The notes under the pieces are model-generated. The model did not search any database, was not told the DNA's origin, and saw nothing but the letters and a program-made list of their open reading frames with translations. A program made the position numbers and the translations under genes. Shown here one piece after another: positions 36,686 through 55,803 of a stretch of DNA of 64,000 nt; position 1 is the stretch's first letter, and every line of letters starts with the position of its first letter. The stretch spans positions 704,001 to 768,000 of the forward strand of contig CAWANJ010000001.1 in assembly GCA_963783385.1 (NCBI GenBank), written 5' to 3'. This stretch comes from an uncultured Gemmatimonadales bacterium (GTDB lineage Bacteria > Gemmatimonadota > Gemmatimonadetes > Palauibacterales > Palauibacteraceae).

Positions 36686-36716
36686 CCCCCGCAGGGGGAC
36701 ACACGAGCTTTCAAGC

Positions 36717-37335: not shown

Positions 37336-37400
37336 CATAGGGAGCATCCCTCAAAGGCATCGCAAGCCAGCCCACCACGCCATCATCCCAGATACCGAGT

Positions 37401-37431
37401 CACGCCAACGAACGAGTTAAGCGCCACACGT
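37401..37431 (+). other. Putative attI-like primary recombination site
   Basis: CCAAC-6 nt-GTTAAGC (GTT at 37416); following bases are the inverted complement of cassette 1's 3' end (14/16); no attC upstream. Confidence 0.6.
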
Positions 37432-37453
37432 ATCCTTCAATACGGAGTGAATC

Positions 37454-38140
37454 ATGGCTGGTGAACGGCAAGGGTTTCCAATGATTCCCATCAGGGCATG
37501 GTGGGCGCTCAGAAAGAGGTTTCGGCTCACCATGCCTAAGGAGGTCACCGCGACCTATGTCGCATCTGCGTTGGACATGACACCCCGTTCGGCAGAGGCC
37601 AACGTGCTTCCAAGCCTGCGCCAGATGGGACTTATCGACGCTGACGGCAAACCGAGTGACCTCGCCAACAGATGGCGCGATGACGACGAGTATGCTGACG
37701 TCGCCGAGACTATTCGAAGCGAGGTATACCCGAGGGAACTGCTCGATCTGGCACCGGCGGGGCATGCCGATCGAAGTACCGTTCAATCTTGGTTTGCGCG
37801 TCATACGGGCGCAGGTGAGAGCGCGGCGAGGAAGATGGCAGCAGTCTACATGATACTGATCGACGCCGATCCGGGTCATGCGCAGGGCAATAAGAGCGGA
37901 ACTGGGACACCTCGCAGATCGAAGCGCAAGCCGTCCAAGAGGAAGAAGAAGAAGGAGACCGGGACCAGGCCGGACGCTCAAACGGATGCAGACAATCAGG
38001 ATGATGAGCCGCGGCGACCTTCCCTTCCCCAGGTGGCATTCAACATTCAGGTTGTGCTGCCTTCCGATGGGAGCGCGGAGACCTACGATCAGATTTTTGC
38101 CAGCATCGCGAAGCACCTCCTGAGCGGCCCGACTGAGTGA
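37454..38140 (+). CDS. Cassette 1 gene 1: DUF5343-like protein
   Basis: VLPSLRQMGLIDADGKPS...FNIQVVLP resembles DUF5343; recognition only. Confidence 0.55.
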   Translation: MAGERQGFPMIPIRAWWALRKRFRLTMPKEVTATYVASALDMTPRSAEANVLPSLRQMGLIDADGKPSDLANRWRDDDEYADVAETIRSEVYPRELLDLAPAGHADRSTVQSWFARHTGAGESAARKMAAVYMILIDADPGHAQGNKSGTGTPRRSKRKPSKRKKKKETGTRPDAQTDADNQDDEPRRPSLPQVAFNIQVVLPSDGSAETYDQIFASIAKHLLSGPTE

Positions 38141-38727
38141 CGGAATCGTCTGGGAGTAAGTGGCTTCACGAGGCCGCCCTAAACGCCAAGGGCGCGCAAG
38201 ACTCCATCGACGCATTGCTTGGCGCCAACGAGACTCCATCTACGAAGAACTTGCGTGTCGAGGATGTTGAGGGTATCGGCTCAGCGGCCATCAGGGCTGC
38301 ACTTGAGAGGGTCTCACCAGAGTTAGCGCGCAGCTACGATCAAATCCTCGAGGACATTGCCGACCGCTCCCGTAAGTCATGGGCGGGTACTGCGCACGAG
38401 ATCCGTGAGACGCTTGCTGCACTGCTAAGGTATATGGCCTCTGACGAGGAGGTCCAAGCACAGGCGTGGTACATTCAAAATTCGAACACCAATGGGCCCA
38501 CACAGAAGCAGCGAGTCCGCTACATCTTGGAGACTCAATCTCCCTCGTCCAAGAGGGCAGATGTGGTCAAAGAGGTGTCGGTCCTTGAAGATCGAATTGG
38601 AAGGCTGGTTCGCGCCACATACGCACGAGCGAGCGATGCGGCACACCGTTTCAAGGGGCGGCGCGAGGTTATTCGAATACTCCGATACTTTGAGGTGTTC
38701 GCCCGCGATCTCATGGATCTTGACTAG
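38137..38727 (+). CDS. Cassette 1 gene 2: helical protein resembling predicted pPIWI-associated/HEPN-like nuclease
   Basis: GTAHEIRETL...DEEV...WY...PTQKQRVRYIL...RASDAAH; GTGA overlap. Confidence 0.45.
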   Translation: MTESSGSKWLHEAALNAKGAQDSIDALLGANETPSTKNLRVEDVEGIGSAAIRAALERVSPELARSYDQILEDIADRSRKSWAGTAHEIRETLAALLRYMASDEEVQAQAWYIQNSNTNGPTQKQRVRYILETQSPSSKRADVVKEVSVLEDRIGRLVRATYARASDAAHRFKGRREVIRILRYFEVFARDLMDLD

Positions 38728-38741
38728 TGAGGACGTGCAGC

Positions 38742-38843
38742 GCTTAACACGACGGGTGCCGCTTCACCGCCTGCGGCGGCTCGCCCTTCGGGACGCCCGC
38801 TCGCTGGGACTCGCGGGCGTCGGCAACCGCGGGGACGTTAGAC
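38742..38843 (+). repeat. attC-like site 1 (family A, 102 bp)
   Basis: GCTTAAC...GTTAGAC; stem CGGGTGCCG/CGGCAACCG. Confidence 0.85.
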
Positions 38844-39036
38844 GCCAGGTCCCCAAGACGGGGGTGATCGATTCCCGATTCGGAGGCGATGTCCCGAACC
38901 GCTGCCGCGAGAGGCGCAGCTCAGGCCGACCCCCGCTCGGAGGGAGAGAGAGCCTCCGAATCGAAGCTGAAGAGCGAATCGCTTAGCAGGTTGGAAGACA
39001 GGGCCACCGCTTGGATCGGGGGACCCGGCGTCTAAC
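38838..39036. repeat. ORF-less structured cassette, copy 1 (cassette 2)
   Basis: Terminal IR and internal CGATTCGGAGGC/GCCTCCGAATCG stem. Confidence 0.85.
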
Positions 39037-39185
39037 AGGATGGGTAGCGGCTCGCGCGCGAGGGCGCGCTCGCTTCAACCTGCTAGGCTTTTCGAAGGCG
39101 GGGATTCGGTGCGGGCTGCTAATCGAGGATCGGTCCGGCAGCGCAGAGCGGGCCAAGCAGGTTCGCTACCCACCGGACGTTAAGC
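39030..39185 (+). repeat. attC-like site 2 (family B)
   Basis: GTCTAAC...GTTAAGC; TGGGTAGCG/CGCTACCCA and AACCTGC/GCAGGTT stems. Confidence 0.85.
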
Positions 39186-39235
39186 GTCACGCTTATATCT
39201 CACCAACCTTGCTCAACGGATGTGGGCACCGGCCA

Positions 39236-39865
39236 ATGGAAACACTCAAGCCACTTGACGAGATCTGCGAACCGGACACGCGACATACGATCTTCGGGGG
39301 ATTTGATCCCGAGGGAGTCAAGGGCGAGGAGGGCGTTAGCCTTCAGACACAGTATGCACAGATGGAGCGCCTGGAATTGCCAAAGTCTGTGCCCGAGACC
39401 GTTCGCTCGGCTTATGCGGTCACCCGCATGCTATGGGTCTACGGATGGTTCTATTGGCCCTTCTACACACTCGCGCTCCTCCACGCCAACACCTGCCTTG
39501 AGATGGCACTCCATCAACGCTTCCTCAAGGACGGCTTGTACGATGAAGAGGGCGACTCATCTAGGAAGGCAAAGAACCGGACGCTAAGCTGGCTGATAAA
39601 GAGAGCCGTTGAGATGGGCTGGTTGGAGGACGAGGCTTTCGAGCACATTCGATGGTGGACCCGGCAGACGCCTCCGTTCGAGAATGAGGGAGACGAATCG
39701 GGACACCAGACCGCACCCGATCCTCAGCGGTATGCGAAGACGCTGGCCTCGACCATTCCGAGCACCCGAAATGCGCAAGCCCATCCGGGGCACTATTCGC
39801 ACGGCTTCCCGCAGGTACTGCCACTTCAGAACGCTCGGGACATCATTGTGCAGTTGTTCATGTAG
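39236..39865 (+). CDS. Cassette 3: HEPN-like protein
   Basis: CLEMAL helix and RNAQAH (RxxxxH). Confidence 0.55.
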   Translation: METLKPLDEICEPDTRHTIFGGFDPEGVKGEEGVSLQTQYAQMERLELPKSVPETVRSAYAVTRMLWVYGWFYWPFYTLALLHANTCLEMALHQRFLKDGLYDEEGDSSRKAKNRTLSWLIKRAVEMGWLEDEAFEHIRWWTRQTPPFENEGDESGHQTAPDPQRYAKTLASTIPSTRNAQAHPGHYSHGFPQVLPLQNARDIIVQLFM

Positions 39866-39884
39866 CGCATTGGGGACGCGCGAC

Positions 39885-40040
39885 GCTTAACAGGACGTGT
39901 GGCGGCTCGCGCGCCAAGGCGCGCTCGCTTCAACCTGCGGAATGCTGGATGAAGCAGTCAGGGGAAACGAGACATGTAGCATATATCAGTCAGGCGAACG
40001 AGAGTGGCCCGCAGGTTCGCCACCCGCCAGAACGTTATCG
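39885..40040 (+). repeat. attC-like site 3 (family D)
   Basis: GCTTAAC...GTTATCG. Confidence 0.85.
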
Positions 40041-40147
40041 GACCTGAGCCGCTCGGCTAGCACGAGTGGATTGGTGGTTGGAACCCCTACGGCCCGGTGT
40101 ACAGGTATCTGCTTGAGCAAGTGCCCGCGGCGGGAGGACTTCACTCA

Positions 40148-40711
40148 ATGTCGATCCAAGCCTCGATCGCATCCTTATGCACGGTGCTGGCGGCTGTCTT
40201 CATGACCTTCGCGGTGCCCCCCAGGGGGACCCAGGCCCAGTCGGTCAAACTCCCGGCGCCGAACGTTCGTCTATGCTATGCGGACTGTGACAGCATCCCC
40301 TCGCTCCCCGATCACGCGGAGCCACACCTCGCGAACCCCTCCGTCATGTTTCAGGCCATGACGGAGGCGTACCGACAGAGACCCAAGACGGCTGCGATCG
40401 GTGGCAGCGCTACCGTGGCGATCCTCATTGGCCAAGATGGTTCGGTCCGAGAGGTTCGTCTCATCACCAGCTCTGGCCACGCTACAATCGACACCATGGC
40501 CGTAGCGGTCGGCAGCGTGATCCGGGCCGCCCCCCGGCCTGGAAGCAAGAAGGTGCATGCCCGCTGGTACGAGATGCCCATCGCCTTCGAGACGAGAGAT
40601 GATGCGAGACAGCCGGTCTACGCCCCGTGTCGGAGATCAAGTCCGATAACAGGTCGGGTGGCGGCTCGCGCGCCAAGGCGCGCTCGCTTCAACCTGCGGG
40701 ATGTCGCTTGA
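40148..40711 (+). CDS. Cassette 4: TonB C-terminal domain protein; ORF ends inside attC 4
   Basis: Signal peptide; G..TVAILIGQDGSV..VRLITSSGH..ID. Confidence 0.65.
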   Translation: MSIQASIASLCTVLAAVFMTFAVPPRGTQAQSVKLPAPNVRLCYADCDSIPSLPDHAEPHLANPSVMFQAMTEAYRQRPKTAAIGGSATVAILIGQDGSVREVRLITSSGHATIDTMAVAVGSVIRAAPRPGSKKVHARWYEMPIAFETRDDARQPVYAPCRRSSPITGRVAARAPRRARFNLRDVA

Positions 40712-40799
40712 AGCCGTCAGCGAAGACGGCCCATGTAGCATATATCAGTCAGGCGGACGCGGCGGGCCCGCAGGTTCGCCACCCGCAAGGACGTTAGAC
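40644..40799 (+). repeat. attC-like site 4 (family D)
   Basis: CGATAAC...GTTAGAC. Confidence 0.85.
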
Positions 40800-40992
40800 G
40801 CCAGGTCCCCAAGACGGGGGTGATCGATTCCCGATTCGGAGGCAATGTCCCGAGCCGCTGCCTCCAGAAGCGCAGCTCGAGCCGAGTTCCGCCCGGAGGG
40901 AGAGAGAGCCTCCGAATCGAAGCTGAAGAGCGAATCGCTTAGCAGGTTGGGAGGCAGGGCCGCCGCTTGGATCGGGGGACCCGGCGTCTAAC
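40794..40992. repeat. ORF-less structured cassette, copy 2 (cassette 5)
   Basis: Same family as 38838-39036. Confidence 0.85.
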
Positions 40993-41142
40993 AGGATGGG
41001 TAGCGGCTCGCGCGCAAAGGCGCGCTCGCTTTAACCTGCTGAGGCCTCTCGCAGATGGGGATCCGATGCGGGCTGCTGATCGAGGATCGGTCCGGCATCC
41101 GAGAGCGGGCCAAGCAGGTTCGCTACCCACCGGACGTTAGGC
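40986..41142 (+). repeat. attC-like site 5 (family B)
   Basis: GTCTAAC...GTTAGGC. Confidence 0.85.
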
Positions 41143-41335
41143 GCCAGGTCCCCAAGACGGGGGTGATCGATTCCTGATTCGGAGGCGAGGTCCCGAGCCG
41201 CGGCCTCAAGAGGCGCAGCTCGAGCCGGACTCCGCTCGAAGGGAGAGAGAGCCTCCGAATCGAGGCTGAAGAGCGAATCGCTTAGCAGGTTGGAAGGCAG
41301 GGCCACCGCTTGGATCGGGGGACCCGGCGCCTAAC
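41137..41335. repeat. ORF-less structured cassette, copy 3 (cassette 6)
   Basis: Same family; appears identical to 43289 and 48458 copies. Confidence 0.85.
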
Positions 41336-41484
41336 AGGATGGGTGGTGGCTCGCGCGCGCTCGCGCGCTCGCAGCAACCTGCGGTAGCTTTTCGAAAAGG
41401 GGAGGCGATGTCGGCGGTCGATTCGGACGCGTCCAGCCCTACGGGTCAGTCCAGCGCAGGTTCACCACCCACCGGACGTTAGAC
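41329..41484 (+). repeat. attC-like site 6 (family C)
   Basis: GCCTAAC...GTTAGAC; TGGGTGGTG/CACCACCCA stem. Confidence 0.85.
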
Positions 41485-41677
41485 GCCAGGTCCCCAAGAC
41501 AGGGGTGATCGATGCCCGATTCGGAGGCGATGTCCCGAACCGCGGCCGCGAGAGGCGCAGCTCAGGCCGACCCCCGCTCGGAGGGAGAGAGAGCCTCCGA
41601 ATCGAGGCTGAAGATCGAATCGCTTCGCAGGTGAGCAGGCAGGGCCGCCGCTTGGATCGGGGGACCCAGCGTCTAAC
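41479..41677. repeat. ORF-less structured cassette, copy 4 (cassette 7)
   Basis: Same family. Confidence 0.85.
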
Positions 41678-41827
41678 AGGATGGGTAGCGGCTCGCGCGC
41701 GAGGGCGCGCTCGCTTCAACCTGCTGAGGCTTCTCGAAGGTGGGGATTCGATGCGGGCTGCTGATCGAGGATCGGTCCGGCAGCGCAGAGCGGGCCAAGC
41801 AGGTTCGCTACCCACCGGACGTTAGAC
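41671..41827 (+). repeat. attC-like site 7 (family B)
   Basis: GTCTAAC...GTTAGAC. Confidence 0.85.
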
Positions 41828-41859
41828 GGAATTCCAAAGGATTCTGAGGGAGCAGAGGA

Positions 41860-42024
41860 ATGCGCACACCGAGGCCACAGGGCTGGAGACCCACAATGTC
41901 CGCAGCCGCAGCAGCCGGTGCTGCCGGTCTCGGGGTCCCGACACACTCCCCTGTCTGGACCGCCTTCGGCGCACTCGTCGGTGCCACGATCGGTTACCTC
42001 GTCGCACTTCGACTAGACAAGTAG
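41860..42024 (+). CDS. Cassette 8: 54-aa small membrane peptide (not in ORF track)
   Basis: MRTPRPQGWRPTMSAAAAAGAAGLGVPTHSPVWTAFGALVGATIGYLVALRLDK; fills the cassette, RBS-like leader. Confidence 0.55.
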   Translation: MRTPRPQGWRPTMSAAAAAGAAGLGVPTHSPVWTAFGALVGATIGYLVALRLDK

Positions 42025-42035
42025 AGAGGAACTCC

Positions 42036-42193
42036 GTCTAACAGGACGGGCGGCGGCTCGCGCGCTCTCGCGCGCTCGACCCAACCTGCGGTAGCTTTTC
42101 AGAAATCGGAACGGTGAGGTGGCGACCGGTGGAGAACCGCTCCGCCCTGCTCTTCAGGCCACCGCAGGTTCGCCACCCGCCGGGACGTTATCC
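42036..42193 (+). repeat. attC-like site 8 (family E)
   Basis: GTCTAAC...GTTATCC. Confidence 0.85.
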
Positions 42194-42217
42194 GCAATCT
42201 CAAGAGGGTTAGGTTCG

Positions 42218-42436
42218 ATGCGCCGGTTTGACGTCTTCGGTCGAATGATGGGAGTCGATCGAAAGGACGACCGTTGGCAGGTCTACGATCTCGGGCCCGA
42301 CGGCAAGCGTCGCGAAGCCCGCGACATCATGATCCCGGCATCGGTCCCCGAGGAGCAGCTCGCTCTCTACCTTGCGGAGATCTTCCATGAGTCAGCGTCG
42401 CCACGACGGCCCGAGGTGCTGGAACTGGACCCCTGA
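42218..42436 (+). CDS. Cassette 9: 72-aa hypothetical protein
   Basis: MRRFDVFGR...LYLAEIFHE; fills the cassette. Confidence 0.7.
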   Translation: MRRFDVFGRMMGVDRKDDRWQVYDLGPDGKRREARDIMIPASVPEEQLALYLAEIFHESASPRRPEVLELDP

Positions 42437-42460
42437 GCCAGCACGGGAGCGAGAGTCTGC

Positions 42461-42616
42461 GGATAACAGGATGGGTAGCGGCTCGCGCGCTGCGCGCACT
42501 CGCTTCAACCTGCTGAAGCTGTTCGGAGGTGGGGATTCGGTGCGGGCAGCTGATCGAAGATCGGTCCGGCAGCGGAGAACCGGCCAAGCAGGTTCGCTAC
42601 CCACCGGACGTTAGGC
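42461..42616 (+). repeat. attC-like site 9 (family B)
   Basis: GGATAAC...GTTAGGC. Confidence 0.85.
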
Positions 42617-42809
42617 GCCAGGTCCCCGAAACGGGATGTGCCGGGTTCCGATTCGGAGGCGAGGTCCCGAGCCGCTGCCTCTAGAAACGCAGCTCAGGCT
42701 GAGCTCCACTCGGAGGGAGAGGATGCCTCCGAATCGAGGCTGAAGAGCGAATCACTTAGCGAGATGACAGGCAGGGCCACCGCTTGGATCGGGGGACCCG
42801 GCGCCTAAC
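42611..42809. repeat. ORF-less structured cassette, copy 5 (cassette 10)
   Basis: Same family. Confidence 0.85.
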
Positions 42810-42956
42810 AGGATGGGTGGTGGCTCGCGCGCTCGCGCGCTCGCAGCAACCTGCGGTAGCTTTTCGAAAAGGGGAGGCGATGTCGGCGGTCGATTCGGTC
42901 GCGTCCAATCCAGCGATTCAGGCCAACGCAGGTTCACCACCCACCGGACGTTAGGC
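42803..42956 (+). repeat. attC-like site 10 (family C)
   Basis: GCCTAAC...GTTAGGC. Confidence 0.85.
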
Positions 42957-43149
42957 GCCAGGTCCCCGAAACTGGATGTGCCGGGTTCCGATTCGGAGGC
43001 GGGGTCCCGAGCCACTGCCTAGAGAGGCGCAGCTCAGGCTGAGCTCCACTCGGAGGGACAGAATGCCTCCGAATCGAGGCTGAAGAGCGAGTCGCTTAGC
43101 GAGAGGGAAGGCAGGGCCACCGCTTGGATCGGGGGACCCGGCGCCTAAC
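42951..43149. repeat. ORF-less structured cassette, copy 6 (cassette 11)
   Basis: Same family. Confidence 0.85.
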
Positions 43150-43294
43150 AGGATGGGTGGTGGCTCGCGCTCGCGCGCTCGCGGCAACCTGCGGTAGCTT
43201 TTCGAAAAGGGGAGGCGATGCCGGCGGTCGATTCGGACGCGTCCAATCGAGCGAATCAGGCCAACGCAGGTTCACCACCCACCGGACGTTAGGC
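43143..43294 (+). repeat. attC-like site 11 (family C)
   Basis: GCCTAAC...GTTAGGC. Confidence 0.85.
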
Positions 43295-43487
43295 GCCAGG
43301 TCCCCAAGACGGGGGTGATCGATTCCTGATTCGGAGGCGAGGTCCCGAGCCGCGGCCTCAAGAGGCGCAGCTCGAGCCGGACTCCGCTCGAAGGGAGAGA
43401 GAGCCTCCGAATCGAGGCTGAAGAGCGAATCGCTTAGCAGGTTGGAAGGCAGGGCCACCGCTTGGATCGGGGGACCCGGCGCCTAAC
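43289..43487. repeat. ORF-less structured cassette, copy 7 (cassette 12)
   Basis: Same family. Confidence 0.85.
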
Positions 43488-43636
43488 AGGATGGGTGGTG
43501 GCTCGCGCGCGCTCGCGCGCTCGCAGCAACCTGCGGTAGCTTTTCGAAAAGGGGAGGCGATGTCGGCGGTCGATTCGGACGCGTCCAGCCCTACGGGTCA
43601 GTCCAGCGCAGGTTCACCACCCACCGGACGTTATCA
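43481..43636 (+). repeat. attC-like site 12 (family C)
   Basis: GCCTAAC...GTTATCA. Confidence 0.85.
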
Positions 43637-43684
43637 GAAACGCGCCCCAGCTGATTGGAAATAGGAGATTGGTACTGCAGCGCC

Positions 43685-43972
43685 CTAGGTGGAGGACGCA
43701 GCCTTCCTGGCTGGCGGAGGAGCCGGGGTACCATCCAGCATGCCGCGGATGCTGATGTCTTCGTCAACGTCGGGCCAGTGAATGCCTTGACCAGCTCCGA
43801 TAAGACGGAAGTTGGTGCGCTGTTGGGGCGTGGCTTCGCTCAAGCGCCACGACCACGCGAGCGGGACACTGATCGTACGGCCGTCTGTCAGGCGCGCGAT
43901 GATCTCATTGTCGGTCACCTCGACGTCGGTCGCCAAGGGTTCAGACGTGGCCGCAGTGTTCGTCCCAGGCAT
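43685..43972 (-). CDS. Cassette 13: DUF2442 family protein
   Basis: LTDGRTISVPLAWSWRL..AT..Q...GIHWPDVDEDIS. Confidence 0.8.
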   Translation of the reverse strand: MPGTNTAATSEPLATDVEVTDNEIIARLTDGRTISVPLAWSWRLSEATPQQRTNFRLIGAGQGIHWPDVDEDISIRGMLDGTPAPPPARKAASST

Positions 43973-44183
43973 TCGAGATCCTCTGGATGTGGGACTCAAT
44001 CAAGCCCCGGATCCTGTTGAGCTCGCGCGGAGCGAAGCCATGGTTGCGAGCGAGAACCAACGGGTCCAGCCAGAACTTGCACGTGGACCGATCACGCTCG
44101 ACATGCACATGCTTTGGCTCCCTGCAATCGAAGCTGTAGAAGAAGAACCGGTACGGTCCGGAGATGTCTGAAATGGTTGGCAT
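43941..44183 (-). CDS. Cassette 13: DUF4160 family protein (putative TA partner)
   Basis: MPTI...GPYRFFFYS..EPKHVHV...KFWL. Confidence 0.8.
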   Translation of the reverse strand: MPTISDISGPYRFFFYSFDCREPKHVHVERDRSTCKFWLDPLVLARNHGFAPRELNRIRGLIESHIQRISNAWDEHCGHV

Positions 44184-44285
44184 CACGCGTCCCGGCCCGA
44201 GGCTTCTCTACCCTCAGATGCTAGCATACACCGAGGCGCCTCGCCAAGAGCCGCGTTGGCCTCGAGGTCCACGGTCGCGCGAATC

Positions 44286-44441
44286 TGATAACAGGACGGG
44301 TGGCGGCTCGCGCGCCAAGGCGCGCTCGCTTCAACCTGCGGAATGTCGGTTGAAGCAGTCACTGGAAGCGGGCAATGTAGCATATGTCAGTCAGGCAAAC
44401 GAGGGTGGCCCGCAGGTTCGCCACCCACCGGGGCGTTATGT
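44286..44441 (+). repeat. attC-like site 13 (family D)
   Basis: TGATAAC...GTTATGT. Confidence 0.85.
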
Positions 44442-44481
44442 CAAATGGCGCGCCATTGGCCTACGAGGCTAGATTTCTCGT

Positions 44482-44769
44482 ATGACACCGGCGGTGGCTG
44501 AGCTTCGGGAGCAGGTGCGAGACGTCATGCGGAAGCGTGGGGTCGTCCGAGCCAGTGTGTTCGGGTCCGTGGCCCGCGGGGAGGATCACCCGGCGAGCGA
44601 TGTGGACTTCCTCGTCGAGCTGGAAGAGGGACGGACCCTCCTCGACCTGGCTGGCCTGCGGCTGGATCTCGAGGACCTTCTGGAGCGCGACGTTGACGTA
44701 GCCACACCGGCTTCTCTCCATCCCCAGCTCCGCGAACGTATCCTCGAGCAGCAGGTCCCGATCTTGTGA
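44482..44769 (+). CDS. Cassette 14: minimal nucleotidyltransferase
   Basis: VFGSVARGE...SDVD. Confidence 0.85.
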   Translation: MTPAVAELREQVRDVMRKRGVVRASVFGSVARGEDHPASDVDFLVELEEGRTLLDLAGLRLDLEDLLERDVDVATPASLHPQLRERILEQQVPIL

Positions 44770-45110
44770 CGCGCTCGGCTCGGATCCTTCTCGGGGACAT
44801 CCTTGAGGCAGCCGAGCTGCTCGAACGCTACACGGCCGGCATCTCCCACCAGCAATTCGCGAACAACCTCGAGAAGCAGGACGCCGTCGCCCGCCGGATC
44901 GAGGTCATTGGGGAAGCCGTCAAAGGCCTCCCCGAGTCCCTTCGCCAGCGGCACCCCGAAGTGCCGTGGCGGGAGATTGCCGGAGCGAGGGATGTCCTGA
45001 TTCACGAATACTTCCGAATCGACGTCAGGCTCGCCTGGGAGATGGTTCAGAAGGACATCCCGGACCTGGCAGCCAAGGTCCGGAAGATCCTGGGTGAACT
45101 CGAAGACTGA
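44766..45110 (+). CDS. Cassette 14: HEPN/DUF86 toxin
   Basis: DAVARRIEVIGEA, RDVLIH. Confidence 0.85.
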   Translation: MTRSARILLGDILEAAELLERYTAGISHQQFANNLEKQDAVARRIEVIGEAVKGLPESLRQRHPEVPWREIAGARDVLIHEYFRIDVRLAWEMVQKDIPDLAAKVRKILGELED

Positions 45111-45123
45111 GGTCTGCCACTTC

Positions 45124-45225
45124 ACATAACACGACGGCTGCCGCTTCGCCGCCTGCGGCGGCTCGCCCTGCGGGACGCCCGCTCGCTGAGACTCGCGGGC
45201 GTCGGCAACCGCGGGGACGTTAGAC
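45124..45225 (+). repeat. attC-like site 14 (family A)
   Basis: ACATAAC...GTTAGAC. Confidence 0.85.
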
Positions 45226-45419
45226 GCCAGGTCCCCGAAACAGGGGATGGTCGGTTCCCGATTCGGAGGCGATGTCCCGTAGCGCTGCCTCGGTGAACGC
45301 AGCTCAGGCTGAGCTCCACTCGGAGGGAGAGGATGCCTCCGAATCGAGGCTGAAGAGCGAATCGCTTAGCGAGATGGAAGGCAGGGCCACCGCTTGGATC
45401 GGGGGACCCGGCGCCTAAC
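45220..45419. repeat. ORF-less structured cassette, copy 8 (cassette 15)
   Basis: Same family; one core mismatch (GTTAGAC/GCCTAAC). Confidence 0.85.
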
Positions 45420-45569
45420 AGGATGGGTGGTGGCTCGCGCGCGCTCGCGCGCTCGCAGCAACCTGCGGTAGCTTTTCGAAAAGGGGGAGGCGATGTCGGC
45501 GGTCGATTCGGACGCGTCCAGCCCAACGAGTCAGGCCAGCGCAGGTTCACCACCCACCGGACGTTAGAC
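45413..45569 (+). repeat. attC-like site 15 (family C)
   Basis: GCCTAAC...GTTAGAC. Confidence 0.85.
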
Positions 45570-45762
45570 GCCAGGTCCCCAAGACGGGGGTGATCGATTC
45601 CCGATTCGGAGGCGATGTCCCGAACCGCTGCCGCGAGAGGCGCAGCTCAGGCCGACCCCCGCTCGGAGGGAGAGAGAGCCTCCGAATCGAAGCTGAAGAT
45701 CGAATCGCTTAGCAGGTTGGGAGGCAGGGCCGCCGCTTGGATCGGGGGACCCGGCGTCTAAC
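45564..45762. repeat. ORF-less structured cassette, copy 9 (cassette 16)
   Basis: Same family. Confidence 0.85.
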
Positions 45763-45911
45763 AGGATGGGTAGCGGCTCGCGCGCGAGAGCGCGCTCGCT
45801 TCAACCTGCTAGGCTTTTCGAAGGTGGGGATCCGATACGGGCTGCTGATCGAGGATCGGTCCGGCAGCGGAGAGCGGGCCAAGCAGGTTCGCTACCCACC
45901 GGACGTTAGGC
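45756..45911 (+). repeat. attC-like site 16 (family B)
   Basis: GTCTAAC...GTTAGGC. Confidence 0.85.
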
Positions 45912-46104
45912 GCCAGGTCCCCGAAACAGGGTGTGCCGGGTTCCGATTCGGAGGCGATGTCCCGAACCGCTGCCTCCAGAAGCGCAGCTCGAGCCAGCTT
46001 CCGCTCGGAGGGAGAAAGAGCCTCCGAATCGAGGCTGAAGAGCGAATCGCTTGGCGAGATGGCAGGCAGGGCCACCGCTTGGATCGAGGGACCCGGCGCC
46101 TAAC
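45906..46104. repeat. ORF-less structured cassette, copy 10 (cassette 17)
   Basis: Same family. Confidence 0.85.
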
Positions 46105-46253
46105 AGGATGGGTGGTGGCTCGCGCGCGCTCGCGCGCTCGCAGCAACCTGCGGTAGCTTTTCGAAAAGGGGAGGCGATGTCGGCGGTCGATTCGGACGCG
46201 TCCAGCCCAACGAGTCAGGCCAGCGCAGGTTCACCACCCACCGGACGTTATAA
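46098..46253 (+). repeat. attC-like site 17 (family C)
   Basis: GCCTAAC...GTTATAA. Confidence 0.85.
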
Positions 46254-46360
46254 GACATGCCATAGACGGGTGGGCCGATGGACCGATATCTACGTTGGCC
46301 TTGCGCCCCTTCGTGTCCGATGGGGAGCTGGGCAGCCGCTCTGGCCCGATCGGAGATGAG

Positions 46361-46759
46361 ATGACAGACCTCAACGAGTTCACGCTGGAGCAGGCCGAGG
46401 CGGCGGCCGCGAAGTTGTGGGCGTTCGGCAGCGCCCCTTTCCCGATGGCGGACGGCGCGGTCATACAGGGTCATGTTGAGAAAGCTGTGACTGATACGGC
46501 CATCGCTTTCGCCATCCACGTGCGCCGCCTCCTAGATAATCACGGCATCCGTACCCGATTCACGCTTGATGAGCCGTTTGTGCACTGGTCACCAACCGGC
46601 TCTGCGCCGAAGGTGGCGGTTCTTCGGGATGCCTTGAATCGAATCGTGCATGCCATTGATTTCGAGGTCGGCTTTGAGCGTCTACCGGATGATCAACACA
46701 AGATCAAAGGTGGCGCGATCACGGTCCTGGTACCTTCGGACCAGAACCGACCAACGTGA
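46361..46759 (+). CDS. Cassette 18: hypothetical protein, probably frameshifted near 46730
   Basis: RDALNRIVHA helix; protein-like text continues in another frame (YLRTRTDQREEGLIDVFALA). Confidence 0.5.
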   Translation: MTDLNEFTLEQAEAAAAKLWAFGSAPFPMADGAVIQGHVEKAVTDTAIAFAIHVRRLLDNHGIRTRFTLDEPFVHWSPTGSAPKVAVLRDALNRIVHAIDFEVGFERLPDDQHKIKGGAITVLVPSDQNRPT

Positions 46760-46906
46760 GGAAGGGCTGATCGACGTGTTCGCGCTTGCGTCCTGGCTTC
46801 TACCACCAGGTCTTGCCCGCGGTGCGTGGTCTTGGCCCCGATATGGCGTAACTTCCAGGTGGCGGAATGCTATTGATGCCTGGGTGTGCGGTGTGGTGGG
46901 CACGTC

Positions 46907-46999
46907 TTATAACAAACGGGTGCCGCCTTCGCTCGCTGCGCTCGCTCCGGAGAACACGGCCCGCGGTGCGGGCCGCGTCGGCACCCTAGGACGTTATGT
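46907..46999 (+). repeat. attC-like site 18 (short, 93 bp)
   Basis: TTATAAC...GTTATGT; GGGTGCCG/CGGCACCC. Confidence 0.8.
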
Positions 47000-47028
47000 G
47001 CAAGTTCGGAACTAGCGCGAAGGTAGGA

Positions 47029-47298
47029 TCAGAGACGAGATAGTAGGTCATCATAGTCGGCGTGGGAGCCGATCCAAAACCAGACGAGATCCTCCTGATC
47101 GCGGACACAGAGGGCCCGGTAGCCGCGACCGACGCGCGCGGAGTAGACCGGCCGGGAGGGATGAACCTGCTTGAACTGAAGGCTCGGATGCGTCGGGTCA
47201 CGCTGAAATCGACGGTAGGCAATCCGGGCCTGCCGTTGAACGTGCGCTGGAAGTTGTGCGAAGGCCTTACGAAAGCGCGAGGTCGTGTGGGACGTCAC
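47029..47298 (-). CDS. Cassette 19: RelE/ParE-like toxin
   Basis: FRKAFAQLP...HPSLQFK...YRAL...WFWIGSHADYD. Confidence 0.8.
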   Translation of the reverse strand: MTSHTTSRFRKAFAQLPAHVQRQARIAYRRFQRDPTHPSLQFKQVHPSRPVYSARVGRGYRALCVRDQEDLVWFWIGSHADYDDLLSRL

Positions 47299-47513
47299 AG
47301 CGCATCGGGCTCGAGCGGCTTGGTCCGCCCGCGTCGATGCTCTTCCAGGGCTTCGTCGGCTAGGGACTCAAGGTGGCTTGCCGACGCGGCGAAGGAGCGG
47401 TCCCACTCCTCATCCGACTCGATCTCGTCGAGGAGAATCGCCGCTAGGGCGTCCTGCTGCTCGGAGGGCAGCCTCCTGGCCGCCTCGATCGCCTTCTTCA
47501 GTAGCTCGGTCAT
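47295..47513 (-). CDS. Cassette 19: cognate antitoxin
   Basis: MTELLKKAI...WDRSF...LADEALEE; GGAGG RBS; GTGA overlap. Confidence 0.75.
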   Translation of the reverse strand: MTELLKKAIEAARRLPSEQQDALAAILLDEIESDEEWDRSFAASASHLESLADEALEEHRRGRTKPLEPDAL

Positions 47514-47598
47514 CGTTTCCTCCGCCGTTCGGTGAATTCTACGCCGGCAGCCTGCACAAGTGCCAGCGGCCAGGCGAGCCACTCGGCGCCAAACCTGC

Positions 47599-47755
47599 AC
47601 ATAACAGGACGGGTAGCGGCTCGCGCGCGGAAGCGCGCTCGCTTCAACCTGCTGAAGCACTTCGGAGGTGGGGATCGGATGCGGGCTGCTGATCAGGGAC
47701 CGGTCCGGCAGCGGAGAGCCTGCCAAGCAGGTTCGCTACCCACCGGACGTTAGGC
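47599..47755 (+). repeat. attC-like site 19 (family B)
   Basis: ACATAAC...GTTAGGC. Confidence 0.85.
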
Positions 47756-47948
47756 GCCAGGTCCCCGAAACAGGGTGTGCCGGGTTCCGATTCGGAGGCA
47801 ATGTCCCGAACCGCTGCCTCCAGAAGCGCAGCTCGAGCCAGCTTCCGCTCGGAGGGAGAAAGAGCCTCCGAATCGAGGCTGAAGAGCGAATCGCTTGGCG
47901 AGATGGCAGGCAGGGCCACCGCTTGGATCGAGGGACCCGGCGCCTAAC
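47750..47948. repeat. ORF-less structured cassette, copy 11 (cassette 20)
   Basis: Near-identical to 45906 copy. Confidence 0.85.
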
Positions 47949-48097
47949 AGGATGGGTGGTGGCTCGCGCGCGCTCGCGCGCTCGCAGCAACCTGCGGTAG
48001 CTTTTCGAAAAGGGGAGGCGATGTCGGCGGTCGATTCGGACGCGTCCAGCCCAACGAGTCAGGCCAGCGCAGGTTCACCACCCACCGGACGTTAGAC
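47942..48097 (+). repeat. attC-like site 20 (family C)
   Basis: GCCTAAC...GTTAGAC. Confidence 0.85.
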
Positions 48098-48129
48098 GGA
48101 ATTCCAAAGGATTCTGAGGGAGCAGAGGA

Positions 48130-48294
48130 ATGCGCACACCGAGGCCACAGGGCTGGAGACCCACAATGTCCGCAGCCGCAGCAGCCGGTGCTGCCGGTCT
48201 CGGGGTCCCGACACACTCCCCTGTCTGGACCGCCTTCGGCGCACTCGTCGGTGCCACGATCGGTTACCTCGTCGCACTTCGACTAGACAAGTAG
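48130..48294 (+). CDS. Cassette 21: duplicate of the 54-aa peptide
   Basis: Appears identical to 41860-42024, including its attC. Confidence 0.55.
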   Translation: MRTPRPQGWRPTMSAAAAAGAAGLGVPTHSPVWTAFGALVGATIGYLVALRLDK

Positions 48295-48305
48295 AGAGGA
48301 ACTCC

Positions 48306-48463
48306 GTCTAACAGGACGGGCGGCGGCTCGCGCGCTCTCGCGCGCTCGACCCAACCTGCGGTAGCTTTTCAGAAATCGGAACGGTGAGGTGGCGACCGGT
48401 GGAGAACCGCTCCGCCCTGCTCTTCAGGCCACCGCAGGTTCGCCACCCGCCGGGACGTTAGGC
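48306..48463 (+). repeat. attC-like site 21 (family E)
   Basis: GTCTAAC...GTTAGGC. Confidence 0.85.
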
Positions 48464-48656
48464 GCCAGGTCCCCAAGACGGGGGTGATCGATTCCTGATT
48501 CGGAGGCGAGGTCCCGAGCCGCGGCCTCAAGAGGCGCAGCTCGAGCCGGACTCCGCTCGAAGGGAGAGAGAGCCTCCGAATCGAGGCTGAAGAGCGAATC
48601 GCTTAGCAGGTTGGAAGGCAGGGCCACCGCTTGGATCGGGGGACCCGGCGCCTAAC
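48458..48656. repeat. ORF-less structured cassette, copy 12 (cassette 22)
   Basis: Same family. Confidence 0.85.
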
Positions 48657-48805
48657 AGGATGGGTGGTGGCTCGCGCGCGCTCGCGCGCTCGCAGCAACC
48701 TGCGGTAGCTTTTCGAAAAGGGGAGGCGATGTCGGCGGTCGATTCGGACGCGTCCAGCCCTACGGGTCAGTCCAGCGCAGGTTCACCACCCACCGGACGT
48801 TAACT
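48650..48805 (+). repeat. attC-like site 22 (family C)
   Basis: GCCTAAC...GTTAACT. Confidence 0.85.
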
Positions 48806-48934
48806 GAAAGGTGCCTGTGGATTCAGAACGGGGCCTGAGACAGAGAGAGATGGATGCTGGAGGAGGCGTGGCGACCCAACTCAAGGGACACGTGCGGACG
48901 GCTGGCCACGGCCGACGTATCAAGAGGAGGCGCG

Positions 48935-49432
48935 ATGCGAAGAGGCACGTCAGCGACGGTGGCTGAATTCCTCGGGAGTCTTCCAGTTGACCGGCAGACG
49001 ACCGTGGAGGCGGTGCGGGCCGTGATTCGTCGACACCTGCCCCAGGGCTACGAGGAGGTGGTGGCAAAAAACATGCTGGTCTATCAGGTGCCGCTCAGCC
49101 GGTATGCGGACACCTACAACGGCCATCCGCTGTGGTATGTGGCGTTGGCGTCGGAAAAGTCGTACCTCTCGCTGCATTTGATGCCGGTATACGGGAGCGC
49201 TATCTACGCGGAGCGCCTAGCAGAGGGCTTCCGAAAGGAAGGCAAACGCCTGGACATGGGTAAGGCATGCGTACGGTTCCGGAAGATTGAGGACCTAGCC
49301 CTCGCTCCGATCGGTGAAATAGTTGAAAGCGTGCCGGTGGATCGTTGGGTGGAGATTGCCAAGAGCGCGCGATCTCGAAGATCGCGGGACGGATCTGCTG
49401 GCCGCGCCACACCGGGTGCAGGCGACGGATAG
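48935..49432 (+). CDS. Cassette 23: DUF1801 (YdhG-like) protein
   Basis: LPQGYEE...YVALASEKSYLSLHLM...LDMGKACVRF; AGGAGG RBS. Confidence 0.8.
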   Translation: MRRGTSATVAEFLGSLPVDRQTTVEAVRAVIRRHLPQGYEEVVAKNMLVYQVPLSRYADTYNGHPLWYVALASEKSYLSLHLMPVYGSAIYAERLAEGFRKEGKRLDMGKACVRFRKIEDLALAPIGEIVESVPVDRWVEIAKSARSRRSRDGSAGRATPGAGDG

Positions 49433-49518
49433 AGGCGGTCCGGAAGCATTGGTAGAGGATTGTTAGCGCCGAGGTGGTGTGGCGACGAGCGGTGCTGTAG
49501 TACGCACCGGCACCCATC

Positions 49519-49678
49519 AGTTAACAAACAAGTTGCGCCTACGCCGCGCATGCGCGGCTCCGGGGAACACCGGCGCAAGGCACGCGGGCCGTGGGAAGCG
49601 TGCCGAGAATGTGTCGAAGAGCGGTGCTCGACGGGCCGTGACGGACGCGCCGGCGTCGCAACTTTAGGAACGTTAGGC
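49519..49678 (+). repeat. attC-like site 23 (unique, 160 bp)
   Basis: AGTTAAC...GTTAGGC; AAGTTGCG/CGCAACTT. Confidence 0.8.
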
Positions 49679-49871
49679 GCCAGGTCCCCGAAACAGGGTG
49701 TGCCGGGTTCCGATTCGGAGGCGATGTCCCGAACCGCTGCCTCCAGAAGCGCAGCTCGAGCCAGCTTCCGCTCGGAGGGAGAGAGAGCCTCCGAATCGAG
49801 GCTGAAGAGCGAATCGCTTGGCGAGATGGCAGGCAGGGCCACCGCTTGGATCGAGGGACCCGGCGCCTAAC
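49673..49871. repeat. ORF-less structured cassette, copy 13 (cassette 24)
   Basis: Near-identical to 45906 copy. Confidence 0.85.
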
Positions 49872-49933
49872 AGGATGGGTGGTGGCTCGCGCGCGCTCGC
49901 GCGCTCGCAGCAACCTGCGGTAGCTTTTCGAAA
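49865..49933 (+). repeat. attC-like site 24 (family C), left part; interrupted by IS1595 element
   Basis: Family C sequence stops at TTTCGAAA and resumes at 54537. Confidence 0.85.
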
Positions 49934-49998
49934 CGGAACTATGCACTTGACAAACCCATGCGCCCATGGTACCTTTCATAGTAGAAAGGGGAGCTACC

Positions 49999-50907
49999 AT
50001 GAGCATGACGTTCGCGGAAGCATTGGCTCTGTCGGAGAGCGAGGCAAGGACCTATCTGGAGCGCATCCGCTGGCCGGAAGGTCCCGTGTGCCCCCATTGC
50101 GGCGCGTCGGACCGGATCTATGACCTCCAGGGTAGCGCGCACCGCGAGGGCCTCTACAAGTGCGGATCCTGCCGGAAGCAGTTCACGGTCACGGTCGGTA
50201 CCGTCATGCACCGGACCAAGATCCCGCTCCGCAAGTGGGTTCTGGCCTTCCAGATCCTGTGCGCGTCCAAGAAGGGTGTCTCGGCCCTGCAGCTCCAGCG
50301 GATGCTGGACCTCGGGTCCTACCGGACCGCATGGCACATGGCGCACCGCATCCGGCTTGCCATGCGGGAAGAGCCACTCGCCACCATGCTCCATGGGCAC
50401 GTGGAGGTCGATGAGACCTACATTGGCGGCAAGACACGGAAGGGCATCCGTGGGCGGGGCTCGGAGCGGAAGACCCCGGTCCTGGCACTCGTGGAGCGGA
50501 ACGGCCGCGTGCGGTCGCAGCCCGTCCAGCGCGTGTCCGGCAAGGAACTCAAGGCCGCGATCCGGGAGCAGGTTCACAAGTCGGCCGCGATCCACACCGA
50601 CGAACTGGCCTCCTACAAGGGCATTGGTGCCGAGTTCGAGGGCGGACATCACGTGGTGCGGCACGGACGGGGCGAGTACGTTGCCGGTCCGGCGAGCACC
50701 AACACCGCTGAGAGCTACTTTGCCCTGCTCAAGCGGTCGATCCACGGAGCCTATCACAGCGTGTCGAAGAAGCATCTGGGGCGCTACCTCGACCACCAGG
50801 GCTTCCTGTGGAACACCAGGGACCTTCCGGATGGGGCGAGAGTGGATGCGGCGGTCCGCGGAGTCGGTGGCAAGCGGCTTACGTATTCGACGCCACGTAA
50901 CCGGTGA
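49999..50907 (+). CDS. IS1595 family transposase
   Basis: CPHCG...YKCGSCRKQFTV Zn ribbon, VEVDETY, HTDE, TNTAESYF. Confidence 0.92.
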   Translation: MSMTFAEALALSESEARTYLERIRWPEGPVCPHCGASDRIYDLQGSAHREGLYKCGSCRKQFTVTVGTVMHRTKIPLRKWVLAFQILCASKKGVSALQLQRMLDLGSYRTAWHMAHRIRLAMREEPLATMLHGHVEVDETYIGGKTRKGIRGRGSERKTPVLALVERNGRVRSQPVQRVSGKELKAAIREQVHKSAAIHTDELASYKGIGAEFEGGHHVVRHGRGEYVAGPASTNTAESYFALLKRSIHGAYHSVSKKHLGRYLDHQGFLWNTRDLPDGARVDAAVRGVGGKRLTYSTPRNR

Positions 50908-50983
50908 GGATTGCGTGTTACAACGTAACCTTGTTACAGCTAACAGCGATGACTAGATTCGATGGGCTACTTGACAGCGGCAA

Positions 50984-51085
50984 TGCGGGCGACCGGCTTT
51001 GCACCGGCACGGGGCAGCCTCGGGTAAGGGTTTGCGCCCCACCGACTCCCAAGGTCGGCGTGTCTACTAGTTCCACCACGCCCGC
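50984..51085 (-). ncRNA. tRNA-like (tRNA-Leu-type scaffold) RNA or pseudo-tRNA
   Basis: Acceptor GCGGGCG/CGCCCGC+A, anticodon arm CCGAC-CTTGGGA-GTCGG, long variable arm, T arm GCCGG-TGCAAAG-CCGGT. Confidence 0.6.
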
Positions 51086-51247
51086 AGCGGAGGTCCAGGC
51101 CGGGCTGGTGCGGCGTACCGTACCGCCCATTCGGGGCGCGTACCCAACGCCCCTTACCCGGTCCTGGCCCGTCAACCGGTCGCGGCTACGCCCGCGCCCG
51201 GCCCCTCACGGCCCTCACGGACACCACCCGTGGGGGCCGTCTTCATC

Positions 51248-51658
51248 CTATCGGATCTTGTACCGTTTCTCGCGGCTTCCCTTCACGGGATCCAGCTTTA
51301 CGTACACGTTGTCCTCGGTGGTCCCGTGATGCAGGTCCCAGCGCACGGAGTTCTTATTGAGCACCTCTCCCGTGCTGGCGCTCCGCTCCACGATCTCATT
51401 GATCGTAAGTGGGCTGTCCGCTCCGCGAAGGATGGTGGTGACTCGCTCTCGAATGCTGACATCTCCGGCAGCACCGGCCGATGCGTGGGCCTTTCCATTG
51501 CGCCCGGCACCGGCTGCACCCGTCTTCTGGACGGCGTCAACCAGCTCCTTCAGCGTCTCGTGGACCAACCGCTGGAGTTCCAGTTTGCGCTCCGCCTGCC
51601 GGATCTCCACCTCGCTATCCTCGAGCTTCTTCCGGAGCAGATCCATGACTTCTGTCAT
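51248..51658 (-). CDS. IS passenger: coiled-coil plus winged-HTH-like protein
   Basis: AAAGGAG RBS; RVTTILRGADSPLTINEIVE. Confidence 0.55.
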   Translation of the reverse strand: MTEVMDLLRKKLEDSEVEIRQAERKLELQRLVHETLKELVDAVQKTGAAGAGRNGKAHASAGAAGDVSIRERVTTILRGADSPLTINEIVERSASTGEVLNKNSVRWDLHHGTTEDNVYVKLDPVKGSREKRYKIR

Positions 51659-51783
51659 TGTTTCGGAACTCCTTTCGGCGGGCCAGCCATCACTCAGTGT
51701 TGGTGGACTGATGGAAGGTAAGCGCTCAGGCATGGAGGAGCAAGGAGGCCATCCGATGGGCCATCACTCGAGGAGGGCATCCT

Positions 51784-54500: not shown

Positions 54501-54536
54501 CGGCGGCGCACTGGGTTTGTCAACGCCATAGTTCCG

Positions 54537-54631: not shown

Positions 54632-54674
54632 GAAAACCGATGAATGGCCAGATCCTTCTGGACTACAGAGGCCC

Positions 54675-55786: not shown

Positions 55787-55803
55787 CGTCAGGAACTGGC
55801 GGC

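Follow-up and report, generated by a model that had tools for sequence, protein, structure and literature searches.

Integron cassettes that carry no gene are an established class: 29 of them have been tested in the superintegrons of Vibrionaceae (Blanco et al., 2024; PMC11014356), and examples from Treponema and Xanthomonas are cited in a review (PMC8876359). Structured repeats akin to cassette recombination sites have also been reported, namely the DUF1874 and 'Transposase-resistance' motifs, which came out of searches for RNA motifs, recur from one intergenic region to the next, and were either matched to attC-type single-stranded DNA (ssDNA) sites or considered likely to be such sites (Weinberg et al., 2017; PMC5737381). 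Beyond promoter activity, the roles of gene-less cassettes are largely open. Here we analyze a stretch of 64,000 nucleotides (hereafter the window) from the genome of an uncultured Gemmatimonadales bacterium (assembly GCA_963783385.1, contig CAWANJ010000001.1, positions 704,001 to 768,000), in which a cassette array holds 13 copies of a short, strongly folded element. With a confidence that lies only somewhat above even, we favour the explanation that these 13 repeats are copies of one self-amplifying, 'selfish' gene-less mobile cassette residing in an integron-type chromosomal array.

Thirteen copies of one cassette unit

A repeat finder recovered a single family of 13 members, all on the + strand and all between 38.8 and 49.9 kb of the window. 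We anchored the units on their conserved ends, taking each to open with the G of GTTAGRC and to close with the C of GYCTAAC, which places the starts of the repeated bodies at 38837, 40793, 41136, 41478, 42610, 42950, 43288, 45219, 45563, 45905, 47749, 48457, and 49672 (+ strand). The body is 200 nt long (G plus 199 nt) in 12 of the 13 copies and 201 nt in the copy at 45219 (c08). When the 13 copies are aligned, mean column identity is 91%, and 64 of the 200 columns are variable. Together with the attC-type site that follows each body, complete cassettes measure 338-344 bp, in line with the unit of about 340 bp that an earlier note on this DNA had put forward from the letters alone. Its count of 13 copies among the first 24 cassettes is likewise reproduced exactly when the array is chained from its attI-type site by seeking, for each GTTA start, the reverse complement of the first 10 bases further downstream. 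This procedure yields 32 consecutive co-oriented cassettes without gaps up to the end of the window, among which the element occupies ranks 2, 5, 6, 7, 10, 11, 12, 15, 16, 17, 20, 22, and 24. Over half of the attI-proximal array consists of the element, which in related strains is repeatedly present at the insertion site.

In array order and all on the + strand, the copies are c01 (cassette 2, 38838-39179, with its body at 38837-39036 and an attC of type A at 39030-39185), c02 (cassette 5, 40794-41136, type A), c03 (cassette 6, 41137-41478, type B), c04 (cassette 7, 41479-41821, type A), c05 (cassette 10, 42611-42950, type B), c06 (cassette 11, 42951-43288, type B), c07 (cassette 12, 43289-43630, type B), c08 (cassette 15, 45220-45563), c09 (cassette 16, 45564-45905, type A), c10 (cassette 17, 45906-46247, type B), c11 (cassette 20, 47750-48091, type B), c12 (cassette 22, 48458-48799, type B), and c13 (cassette 24, 49673-49933). 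The range given for c13 comprises the body and the first ~70 nt of its attC, the remainder of which lies at 54537-54631, past a transposon; in terms of the attC profile, positions 1-72 match at 49865-49936 and positions 60-155 at 54535-54630.

The attC-type sites in which the copies end are 152-158 nt long and fall into the two subtypes A and B. Their layout begins with an R'' box (GYCTAAC) and closes with R' (GTTA); in between are spacers measuring 4 and 6 nt, the inner box TGGGT.../...ACCCA, and a long stretch that varies. All 13 copies start with G|TTAGRC and end with GYCTAAC followed by AGGA, TGGGT...ACCCA, CCGGAC, and GTTA. The attC profile matches behind 12 copies with 136-165 bits and behind c13 as the split site. 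The proposal that each unit carries its own attC therefore holds for every copy, with a crossover box at the 5' end and an attC-type palindrome at the 3' end. The cassette can be described as a 5' crossover-box half (TTAGRC + GCC), about 180 nt of non-coding self-complementary cargo, and an attC-type hairpin of ~155 nt of its own. Judging from these ends, it would be cut and joined exactly at G|TT of the crossover box. The true cargo amounts to about 164-178 nt.

Copies with different neighbours speak for mobility as a unit. Over the whole cassette, c03, c07, and c12 are 100% identical to one another, at ranks 6, 12, and 22 and with different neighbours on both sides, and c10 and c11 (ranks 17 and 20), again with different neighbours on both sides, are 99.7% identical. 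For 10 of the 12 complete copies the nearest relative is non-adjacent, the one adjacent nearest pair being c05/c06. Since identical copies are flanked by different cassettes on both sides, the duplicated unit is exactly one cassette. The earlier note had proposed a BLAST search for copies outside arrays and in relatives: the searches made here showed none elsewhere in the source genome (G000; 3.54 Mb in nine contigs, with 13 copies in the array and 0 outside it), and copies in a second genome and, by motif scan, in metagenomes. In that second genome, G003 of the same genus (locus L002), a copy stands directly at attI, at a contig end, and on the metagenome contigs L021 and L015 the cassette next to attI is again a copy. 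The attI-proximal copies of L002, L021, and L015 are of different subtypes, which points to independent insertions. On a further metagenome contig (L016), a copy adjoins a cassette that is found in the window at 55945-56585 with 99% identity. A motif scan of metagenomes gave 11 loci. True copies are present at eight of them, with 93-96.5% identity to whichever window copy is closest, and several loci hold two or three. The sequences indicate that the element moves as a discrete cassette unit.

The distribution of the family appears narrow. Among 61 genomes, blastn found copies only in G000 and G003, both of genus g1, other relatives giving only matches of 22-54 nt with E > 1e-4 that we take as chance. 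A covariance model (R1), run on 145 genomes of the order, recovered the same two genomes plus a 43-nt match in G085, which was rejected because it lies inside a coding region. The relatives searched are mostly fragmented, incomplete genomes, and absence here means not found in those searched. The attC family itself occurs, among the 61 genomes, only in genus g1 (G000, G001, and G003). Comparison by blastn with plasmid and phage collections gave no match to the element. Four loci of the motif scan were set aside: L011 (on a Desulfobacterales metagenome-assembled genome, the sole genome-contig locus) and the metagenome loci L012 and L014 share one unrelated 97-nt hairpin and have only the 12-mers in common with the element, and L019 holds an unrelated long palindrome, also with only the 12-mers in common, taken as chance; Rfam gave no match on any of the four. 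Among the sequencing runs listed as carriers, none was of RNA. Finally, contigs of four DNA runs placed on 36300-40100 give, for each bin, a summed depth of 12-105 across the element with its attC (38840-39220) and of 19-265 at the upstream attC (38713-38839). They barely cover the unique cassettes; several joints are seen, including ones that turn back, each in a single contig with short sides, from which we draw no conclusion on circles.

Conserved stems, their folding, and the ends of cassettes

The 12-bp inner stem is nearly invariant, as had been remarked from the sequence: its 5' arm CGATTCGGAGGC is exact in 10 of the 13 copies and reads TGATTCGGAGGC in the other three, and its 3' arm is without change in every copy. 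Searched with at most one mismatch, the 12-mer CGATTCGGAGGC and its complement have 34 matches in the window versus 1.12 expected, a number that none of 100 shuffles reached. Eight of these 34 are one-mismatch copies inside the loops of type B attC sites. These loops contain CGATTCGGACGC, one mismatch away from the inner-stem arm (at 41419, 43229, 43571, 45504, 46188, 48032, 48740, and 54566), as well as GGAGGCGATGTC, which is shared with the element. The cargo and the type B attC loop may have a common ancestry or pair with each other; homology between body and attC is limited to a few common 8-10-mers (shuffle p = 0.04), too weak for inference. In a set of 21 copies, made of the 13 from the window and eight full copies from metagenome contigs, the inner stem and seven extra terminal pairs are unchanged.

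Much of the terminal stem turned out to belong to the array as a whole. Typically, the first 10 bases of a cassette (GTTA plus six cassette-specific bases) pair with the 10 bases ending in TAAC of its own R'', after which position 11 sets an A (5') opposite a C (3') and a few more pairs follow. This 10-bp end pairing is present in 14 of the 18 different non-element cassettes of the window, though the six variable bases differ between cassettes, and exactly 10 pairs followed by the A/C mismatch occur in 13 of the 18, the others deviating by one or two positions. At other loci of the lineage (L013, L017, L018, L022, and L045), A/C was found in five of the six non-element cassettes having the 10-bp end pairing. 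Because the variable end bases are complementary within each cassette, they represent a natural covariation for the folded form, which would be that of an excised circle. Read from the bottom strand, and only there, the mismatched A/C turns into a G-T wobble, a feature that could play a part in the choice of strand. In the element, the terminal stem consists of the 10 bp, the mismatch, and seven further pairs (GGTCCCC/GGGGACC), where other cassettes add 0-6. The stem of about 18 nt described in the earlier note does exist, but it is for the most part the array-wide R'/R'' end pairing (10 bp plus A/C), with only 7 bp specific to the element. The ends are perfectly matched (TTAGAC/GTCTAA or TTAGGC/GCCTAA) in 12 of the 13 copies, c08 being the sole one whose 5' TTAGAC is mismatched to its own R'' (GCCTAAC).

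One copy folds with -101.8 kcal/mol on the + strand and -102.2 kcal/mol on the - strand (z = -5.4 and -5.3), and none of 200 shuffles is as stable, which bears out the strong self-folding seen at first reading. Over the 21 copies, the difference in minimum free energy between the + and - strands, computed as RNA, is -0.14 +/- 3.3 kcal/mol, the + strand having the lower energy in 13 of these copies. Among the 53 pairs of the consensus, 41 are invariant and two are changed on both sides, a number that 216 of 500 shuffles reach; one of these two is the crossover-box pair 6/196, which is accounted for by the logic of cassette ends, and the sole clear compensatory change is in the R box. With 91% mean column identity, the copies are too alike for this lack of covariation to count against structure, and what constrains the stems may be their sequence no less than their pairing. 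Equal folding of both strands and the lack of covariation fit a DNA-level palindrome better than an RNA. When folded as circular ssDNA, element cassettes reach -0.23 to -0.27 kcal/mol per nt and other cassettes -0.17 to -0.23. The idea that the excised circle would be largely base-paired holds only to a modest degree: 65-73% of bases are predicted to pair, versus 62-69% in other cassettes, a real but small difference.

Spread of the family and rival explanations

If the element is self-amplifying, the recombinase of the array would repeatedly copy and reinsert it: a single-stranded circle would be excised semi-conservatively and then integrate again, and it is to such repeated copying and reinsertion that we would attribute the high copy number. 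When replication resolves the excision, the donor copy stays where it was. Three properties may favour the element in this cycle: it is very short, being the shortest cassette in the array; its perfectly matched ends would give the best-formed crossover boxes wherever an attC is flanked by two copies; and its compact hairpin cargo would keep both ends together. The conserved hairpins would then act in cis on the DNA, and the family would propagate itself rather than serve the host. Concerning length, excision frequency has been reported to fall from 1.17e-3 at 60-bp spacing to 5.25e-5 at +3000 bp, up to about 20-fold, for one attC pair (PMC5371416). Concerning the ends, when attC sites are folded alone the pairing probability of the crossover core is 0.91-0.98 at all six element-element junctions, and likewise for cassettes 7 and 20, both followed by a 366-bp cassette (cassette X, see below), versus 0.11-0.75 at coding-coding junctions; the high values result from the perfect match of the element ends. 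Among the three readings that the earlier note had offered, its selfish minimal cassette fits best (identical cassettes at ranks 6, 12, and 22; a copy at attI in three related arrays), the role of the cargo being something that we only infer. At 342 bp, the cassette would make a convenient test object for the question of whether a cassette can spread as a better recombination substrate rather than by host benefit.

Several points weigh against self-amplification. When the integrated state is modelled as naked ssDNA, the element's terminal stem has p = 0.98 and takes up the crossover boxes of the two flanking attC sites, whose own pairing drops to p about 0; taken alone, this predicts poor excision. 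With flanks of 250 nt, the crossover core reaches p >= 0.1 at 1 of 19 element-touching junctions versus 4 of 11 coding-coding junctions, and for the triple tandem run the model favours long-range pairings that are kinetically unlikely. The excision circles and the recombination advantage are what we infer from sequence, and the invariant stems of the cargo could serve a host function instead. Identical copies deep in the array, at ranks 12 and 22, are not predicted by insertion at attI only; they would call for gene conversion, for insertion of the attC x attC kind, or for an array that grows very fast. Integrase-independent slippage between near-identical sites has been reported for short cassettes (PMC5371416), and could be the source of the adjacent pair c05/c06. 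Moreover, as copies are confined to genus g1 (G000 and G003) among the 61 and 145 genomes searched, the success of the element is local.

A host-serving structured RNA, expressed by read-through or from an atypical promoter, is the alternative to which we give most thought, although we consider it unlikely. It could act as a small RNA (sRNA), as a transcript stabiliser or anti-polarity spacer, or as a decoy for the RNase toxins of the array, with copies kept for dosage. The strong fold and the invariant sequence blocks would agree with it, as would the one-sided changes that keep G-U on the + strand at pairs 36-181, 39-179, 153-177, and 154-176, the HepT-like RNase toxin genes at 36988-37335 and 44766-45110, and the precedent of gene-less cassettes encoding regulatory RNA (a Xanthomonas sRNA cited in the review, PMC8876359). 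However, neither strand folds better, and the invariance of most pairs, together with a number of two-sided changes equalled by shuffling, lends no covariation support. Rfam gave no match over the whole window at the gathering score, nor over 38700-42000 even at E <= 1, and an ARAGORN scan of 36000-56000 found no tRNA or tmRNA. The body has no promoter-like site, TANNNT hexamer, or terminator, the terminator-like hairpins being located in type B attC sites instead. The earlier suggestions of a structured non-coding RNA and of an attenuator or spacer consequently do not find backing in the body of the element. More improbable still is that the cassette is a promoter driving downstream cassettes, or an antisense promoter, as in Vibrio superintegrons, where most of the 29 gene-less cassettes had sense-strand activity and where, according to the authors, such promoters are not identifiable in silico (PMC11014356). 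Indeed, of the 12 coding cassettes among the first 25, 7 come immediately after a copy, but this equals chance when 13 of 24 cassettes are copies, and three copies in tandem would be pointless for such a purpose. A scan for consensus promoters returned none in the element copies, and a TANNNT (-10-type) hexamer is absent from the 200-nt body of all 12 complete copies on either strand; the attC sites of the element have only TAGCTT-type hexamers without TTG at -35. The absence of a sigma70-like promoter noted at the outset agrees with these scans, and the lack of a -10-type hexamer makes a promoter role unlikely. We give very little credence to a small protein encoded by a frame of 49-66 codons whose stop is the TAA within R'' (in c01, for instance, from the ATG at 38890). 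The frame is open over 66 codons in c05, c10, c11, and c13, with GGAGG before the ATG. Yet the ATG is missing in 5 of the 13 copies and stops occur in frame in c04 and c06, so that the start is lost or stops are present in 7 of 13; the 47 variable columns within this sole long frame split 17/18/12 over codon positions 1/2/3; the gap from GGAGG to ATG is only 2 nt; and, at 66% G+C, chance alone would be expected to leave frames open. The 1-nt insertion of c08 lies upstream of the ATG and is no test of the frame. With a frame broken in 7 of 13 copies and no third-position excess, the original view of the element as non-coding stands.

The folding predictions that weigh against self-amplification would, on the other hand, be expected if the cargo were a lock or ratchet, its hairpin pairing the upstream R' with its own R'' and thereby masking the flanking boxes and stabilising both the element and its upstream neighbour, while an excised circle with a paired 18-bp stem would integrate well. 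We regard this as rather improbable. Folding in the integrated context gives the same picture on both strands, the contrast of 1 of 19 with 4 of 11 junctions has a one-sided Fisher value of about 0.05 for rows that are not independent, and a copy comes first in three related arrays. However, the model is a thermodynamic one of naked ssDNA, without recombinase or single-stranded DNA-binding protein; coding-coding junctions are mostly low too (7 of 11 below 0.1); the pairings preferred in the tandem run are kinetically unlikely; the masking of crossover boxes is borderline; and a locked cassette needs another source of circles for its 13 copies. In the most developed form of this scenario, for which we would claim an equally slender chance on the basis of the folding models, the cargo would act in cis, as a DNA device that tilts the cycle of recombination in an integron-like, Xer-type-run system, with copies accumulating as by a ratchet and neighbours locked as a side effect. 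If true, this would be a cassette manipulating array dynamics and not carrying a function, whose hairpin extends the crossover stem to 18 bp in the circle and blocks excision once integrated. Scarcely credible, by contrast, is an assembly artefact, or a homologous or slippage duplication without site-specific recombination. The three identical copies, and the integrase-free slippage loss of short cassettes that has been reported (PMC5371416), could be read in that sense; but differences between whole cassettes of the family reach 26%, the copies sit between unique cassettes, the whole array lies in one of nine contigs, a second genome and eight metagenome loci carry copies independently, and the identical copies have different neighbours on both sides, the unit being exactly one cassette. 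Self-amplification of the cassette is, among these explanations, the one that we retain.

The array, its recombinase, and neighbouring features

The array begins with GAG|TTAAGC at an attI-type region (37345-37422, + strand), in which the crossover falls within GAG|TTA, between G37416 and T37417. Homology to related arrays extends up to 37426 and is followed by a different first cassette, which is the element in L002, L021, and L015 and a DUF5343/nuclease cassette in the window. An attC of the same family at G000:C1:779502-779655 indicates that the array extends past the window.

A Xer-like tyrosine recombinase (34657-35820, + strand; Pfam Phage_integrase and Phage_int_SAM_4) is encoded 1.6 kb upstream of the array and co-oriented with the cassettes, the interval being taken up by an unknown open reading frame (ORF), a helix-turn-helix gene, and an MNT/HepT toxin-antitoxin pair. 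The annotated start of the recombinase ORF is probably too far upstream, as homology starts near residue 104. Integron integrases reportedly have a specific insertion, described by Messier and Roy in 2001. This additional domain, the I2 helix, is named as integrase-specific for IntI (PMC4792948). The best NCBIfam match of the recombinase is the integron integrase model TIGR02249, with 223.7 bits under a cut-off of 265; positions 178-232 of the model are unmatched, and the matched stretches are only 42 nt apart. Similarly, its best match in the PDB is IntI4 (2a3v) in two stretches, which leave 21 aa of the recombinase opposite 63 aa of IntI4, whereas the match with the XerC-like 4a8e is contiguous. 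Elsewhere in the genome, which is 92% complete, no protein scores above the TIGR02249 cut-off, and in the Protein Atlas the recombinase falls only into generic tyrosine-recombinase clusters. As far as its sequence tells, the recombinase lacks most of the insertion specific to integron integrases, and the array is integron-like rather than a canonical IntI integron. The partner that the earlier note saw as possibly parasitised by the cassette is accordingly not a canonical integron integrase.

The array nevertheless has five traits in common with integrons: a site of attI type, hairpins of attC type, a content that is strain-specific from attI onward, toxin-antitoxin cassettes, and an end pairing that implies folded ssDNA. 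The 10 complementary end bases, variable across dozens of unrelated cassettes, and the fixed A/C mismatch constitute natural covariation evidence for the use of folded single-stranded sites, and this evidence stands beside a recombinase without the insertion thought to define integron integrases.

Among the other features of the locus, cassette 1 (37454-38727) has two genes, one for DUF5343 and one for a protein with a predicted pPIWI-associating nuclease domain (PF18165, E = 4e-11), which makes it a candidate defence pair; it is absent from the first position in three related arrays. MNT/HepT pairs (a nucleotidyltransferase plus a HEPN RNase) are found at 36717-37335, in the interval between recombinase and attI, and at about 44482-45110 (cassette 14), the former being missing in the related contig L015. 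The 366-bp cassette X is present twice (41822-42187 and 48092-48457, 99% identity), each time preceded by a different copy of the element (c04 and c11), and contains an alanine/glycine-rich ORF of 54 codons, possibly for a membrane peptide. The transposon that splits the attC of c13 belongs to the IS1595 family and spans 4603 bp (49934-54536, + strand; Pfam DDE_Tnp_IS1595, Zn_ribbon_IS1595, and N6_Mtase). Besides a transposase and small ORFs, it carries a protein of 793 aa in which N6-DNA-methylase and Eco57I-type domains are recognised; it sits in the palindrome TTTTCGAAAA of that attC, has inverted repeats that start with CGGAACTATG, and is flanked by an 8-bp duplication (TTTCGAAA). From its sequence, it is separate from the element.

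Comparison with described integrons and repeats

The locus shares with sedentary chromosomal integrons, such as the Vibrio cholerae superintegron and its Vibrio cholerae repeats (VCRs), a recombinase beside an attI-type site, at least 32 co-oriented cassettes, and the presence of toxin-antitoxin cassettes. Also in common are the imperfect palindromes of attC type, here 93-160 nt long, in which TAAC...GTTA crossover boxes are combined with an inner box and a spacer that stays unpaired, as well as a cassette content that differs between strains from attI onward. Unlike in these integrons, the recombinase is without the IntI insertion, remains below the TIGR02249 cut-off, and is co-oriented with the cassettes. 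Moreover, the canonical attC crossover box is a 7-bp GTTRRRY/RYYYAAC, whereas the box of this array pairs over 10 bp (GTTA plus six cassette-specific bases) before the A/C mismatch.

Being short, non-coding, and multi-copy, with terminal inverted repeats and a strong hairpin potential, the element also resembles MITEs (miniature inverted-repeat transposable elements) and repetitive extragenic palindromic (REP)-type repeats. An origin as a MITE or a repeat derived from an insertion sequence was rejected, as no copy lies outside the array in 3.54 Mb, the ends are the crossover boxes of the array, each copy has its own attC, and there is no target duplication. The IS1595-family transposon, the one true transposon of the region, differs in having inverted repeats of its own and the 8-bp duplication. 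With respect to the DUF1874 and 'Transposase-resistance' motifs, these are recombination sites themselves, whereas the structured part of the element lies between two sites and has no match in Rfam 15.

The closest likeness is to the gene-less cassettes of integrons, with which the element shares an attC of its own, the lack of an ORF, and residence in a sedentary chromosomal array. In the portions of the literature at hand, we found no description of this element family or of Gemmatimonadota arrays of this type, and no copy numbers for single gene-less families. As far as those portions go, known gene-less cassettes are mostly single and have promoter activity or encode an sRNA, whereas the element has no -10-type hexamer in its body. 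In further distinction, it has a palindrome-like fold on both strands and accounts for 13 of the first 24 cassettes. Gene-less cassettes are, in short, already known; what stands out here is the unusually high copy number of one of them, in an array whose recombinase is not a standard integron integrase.

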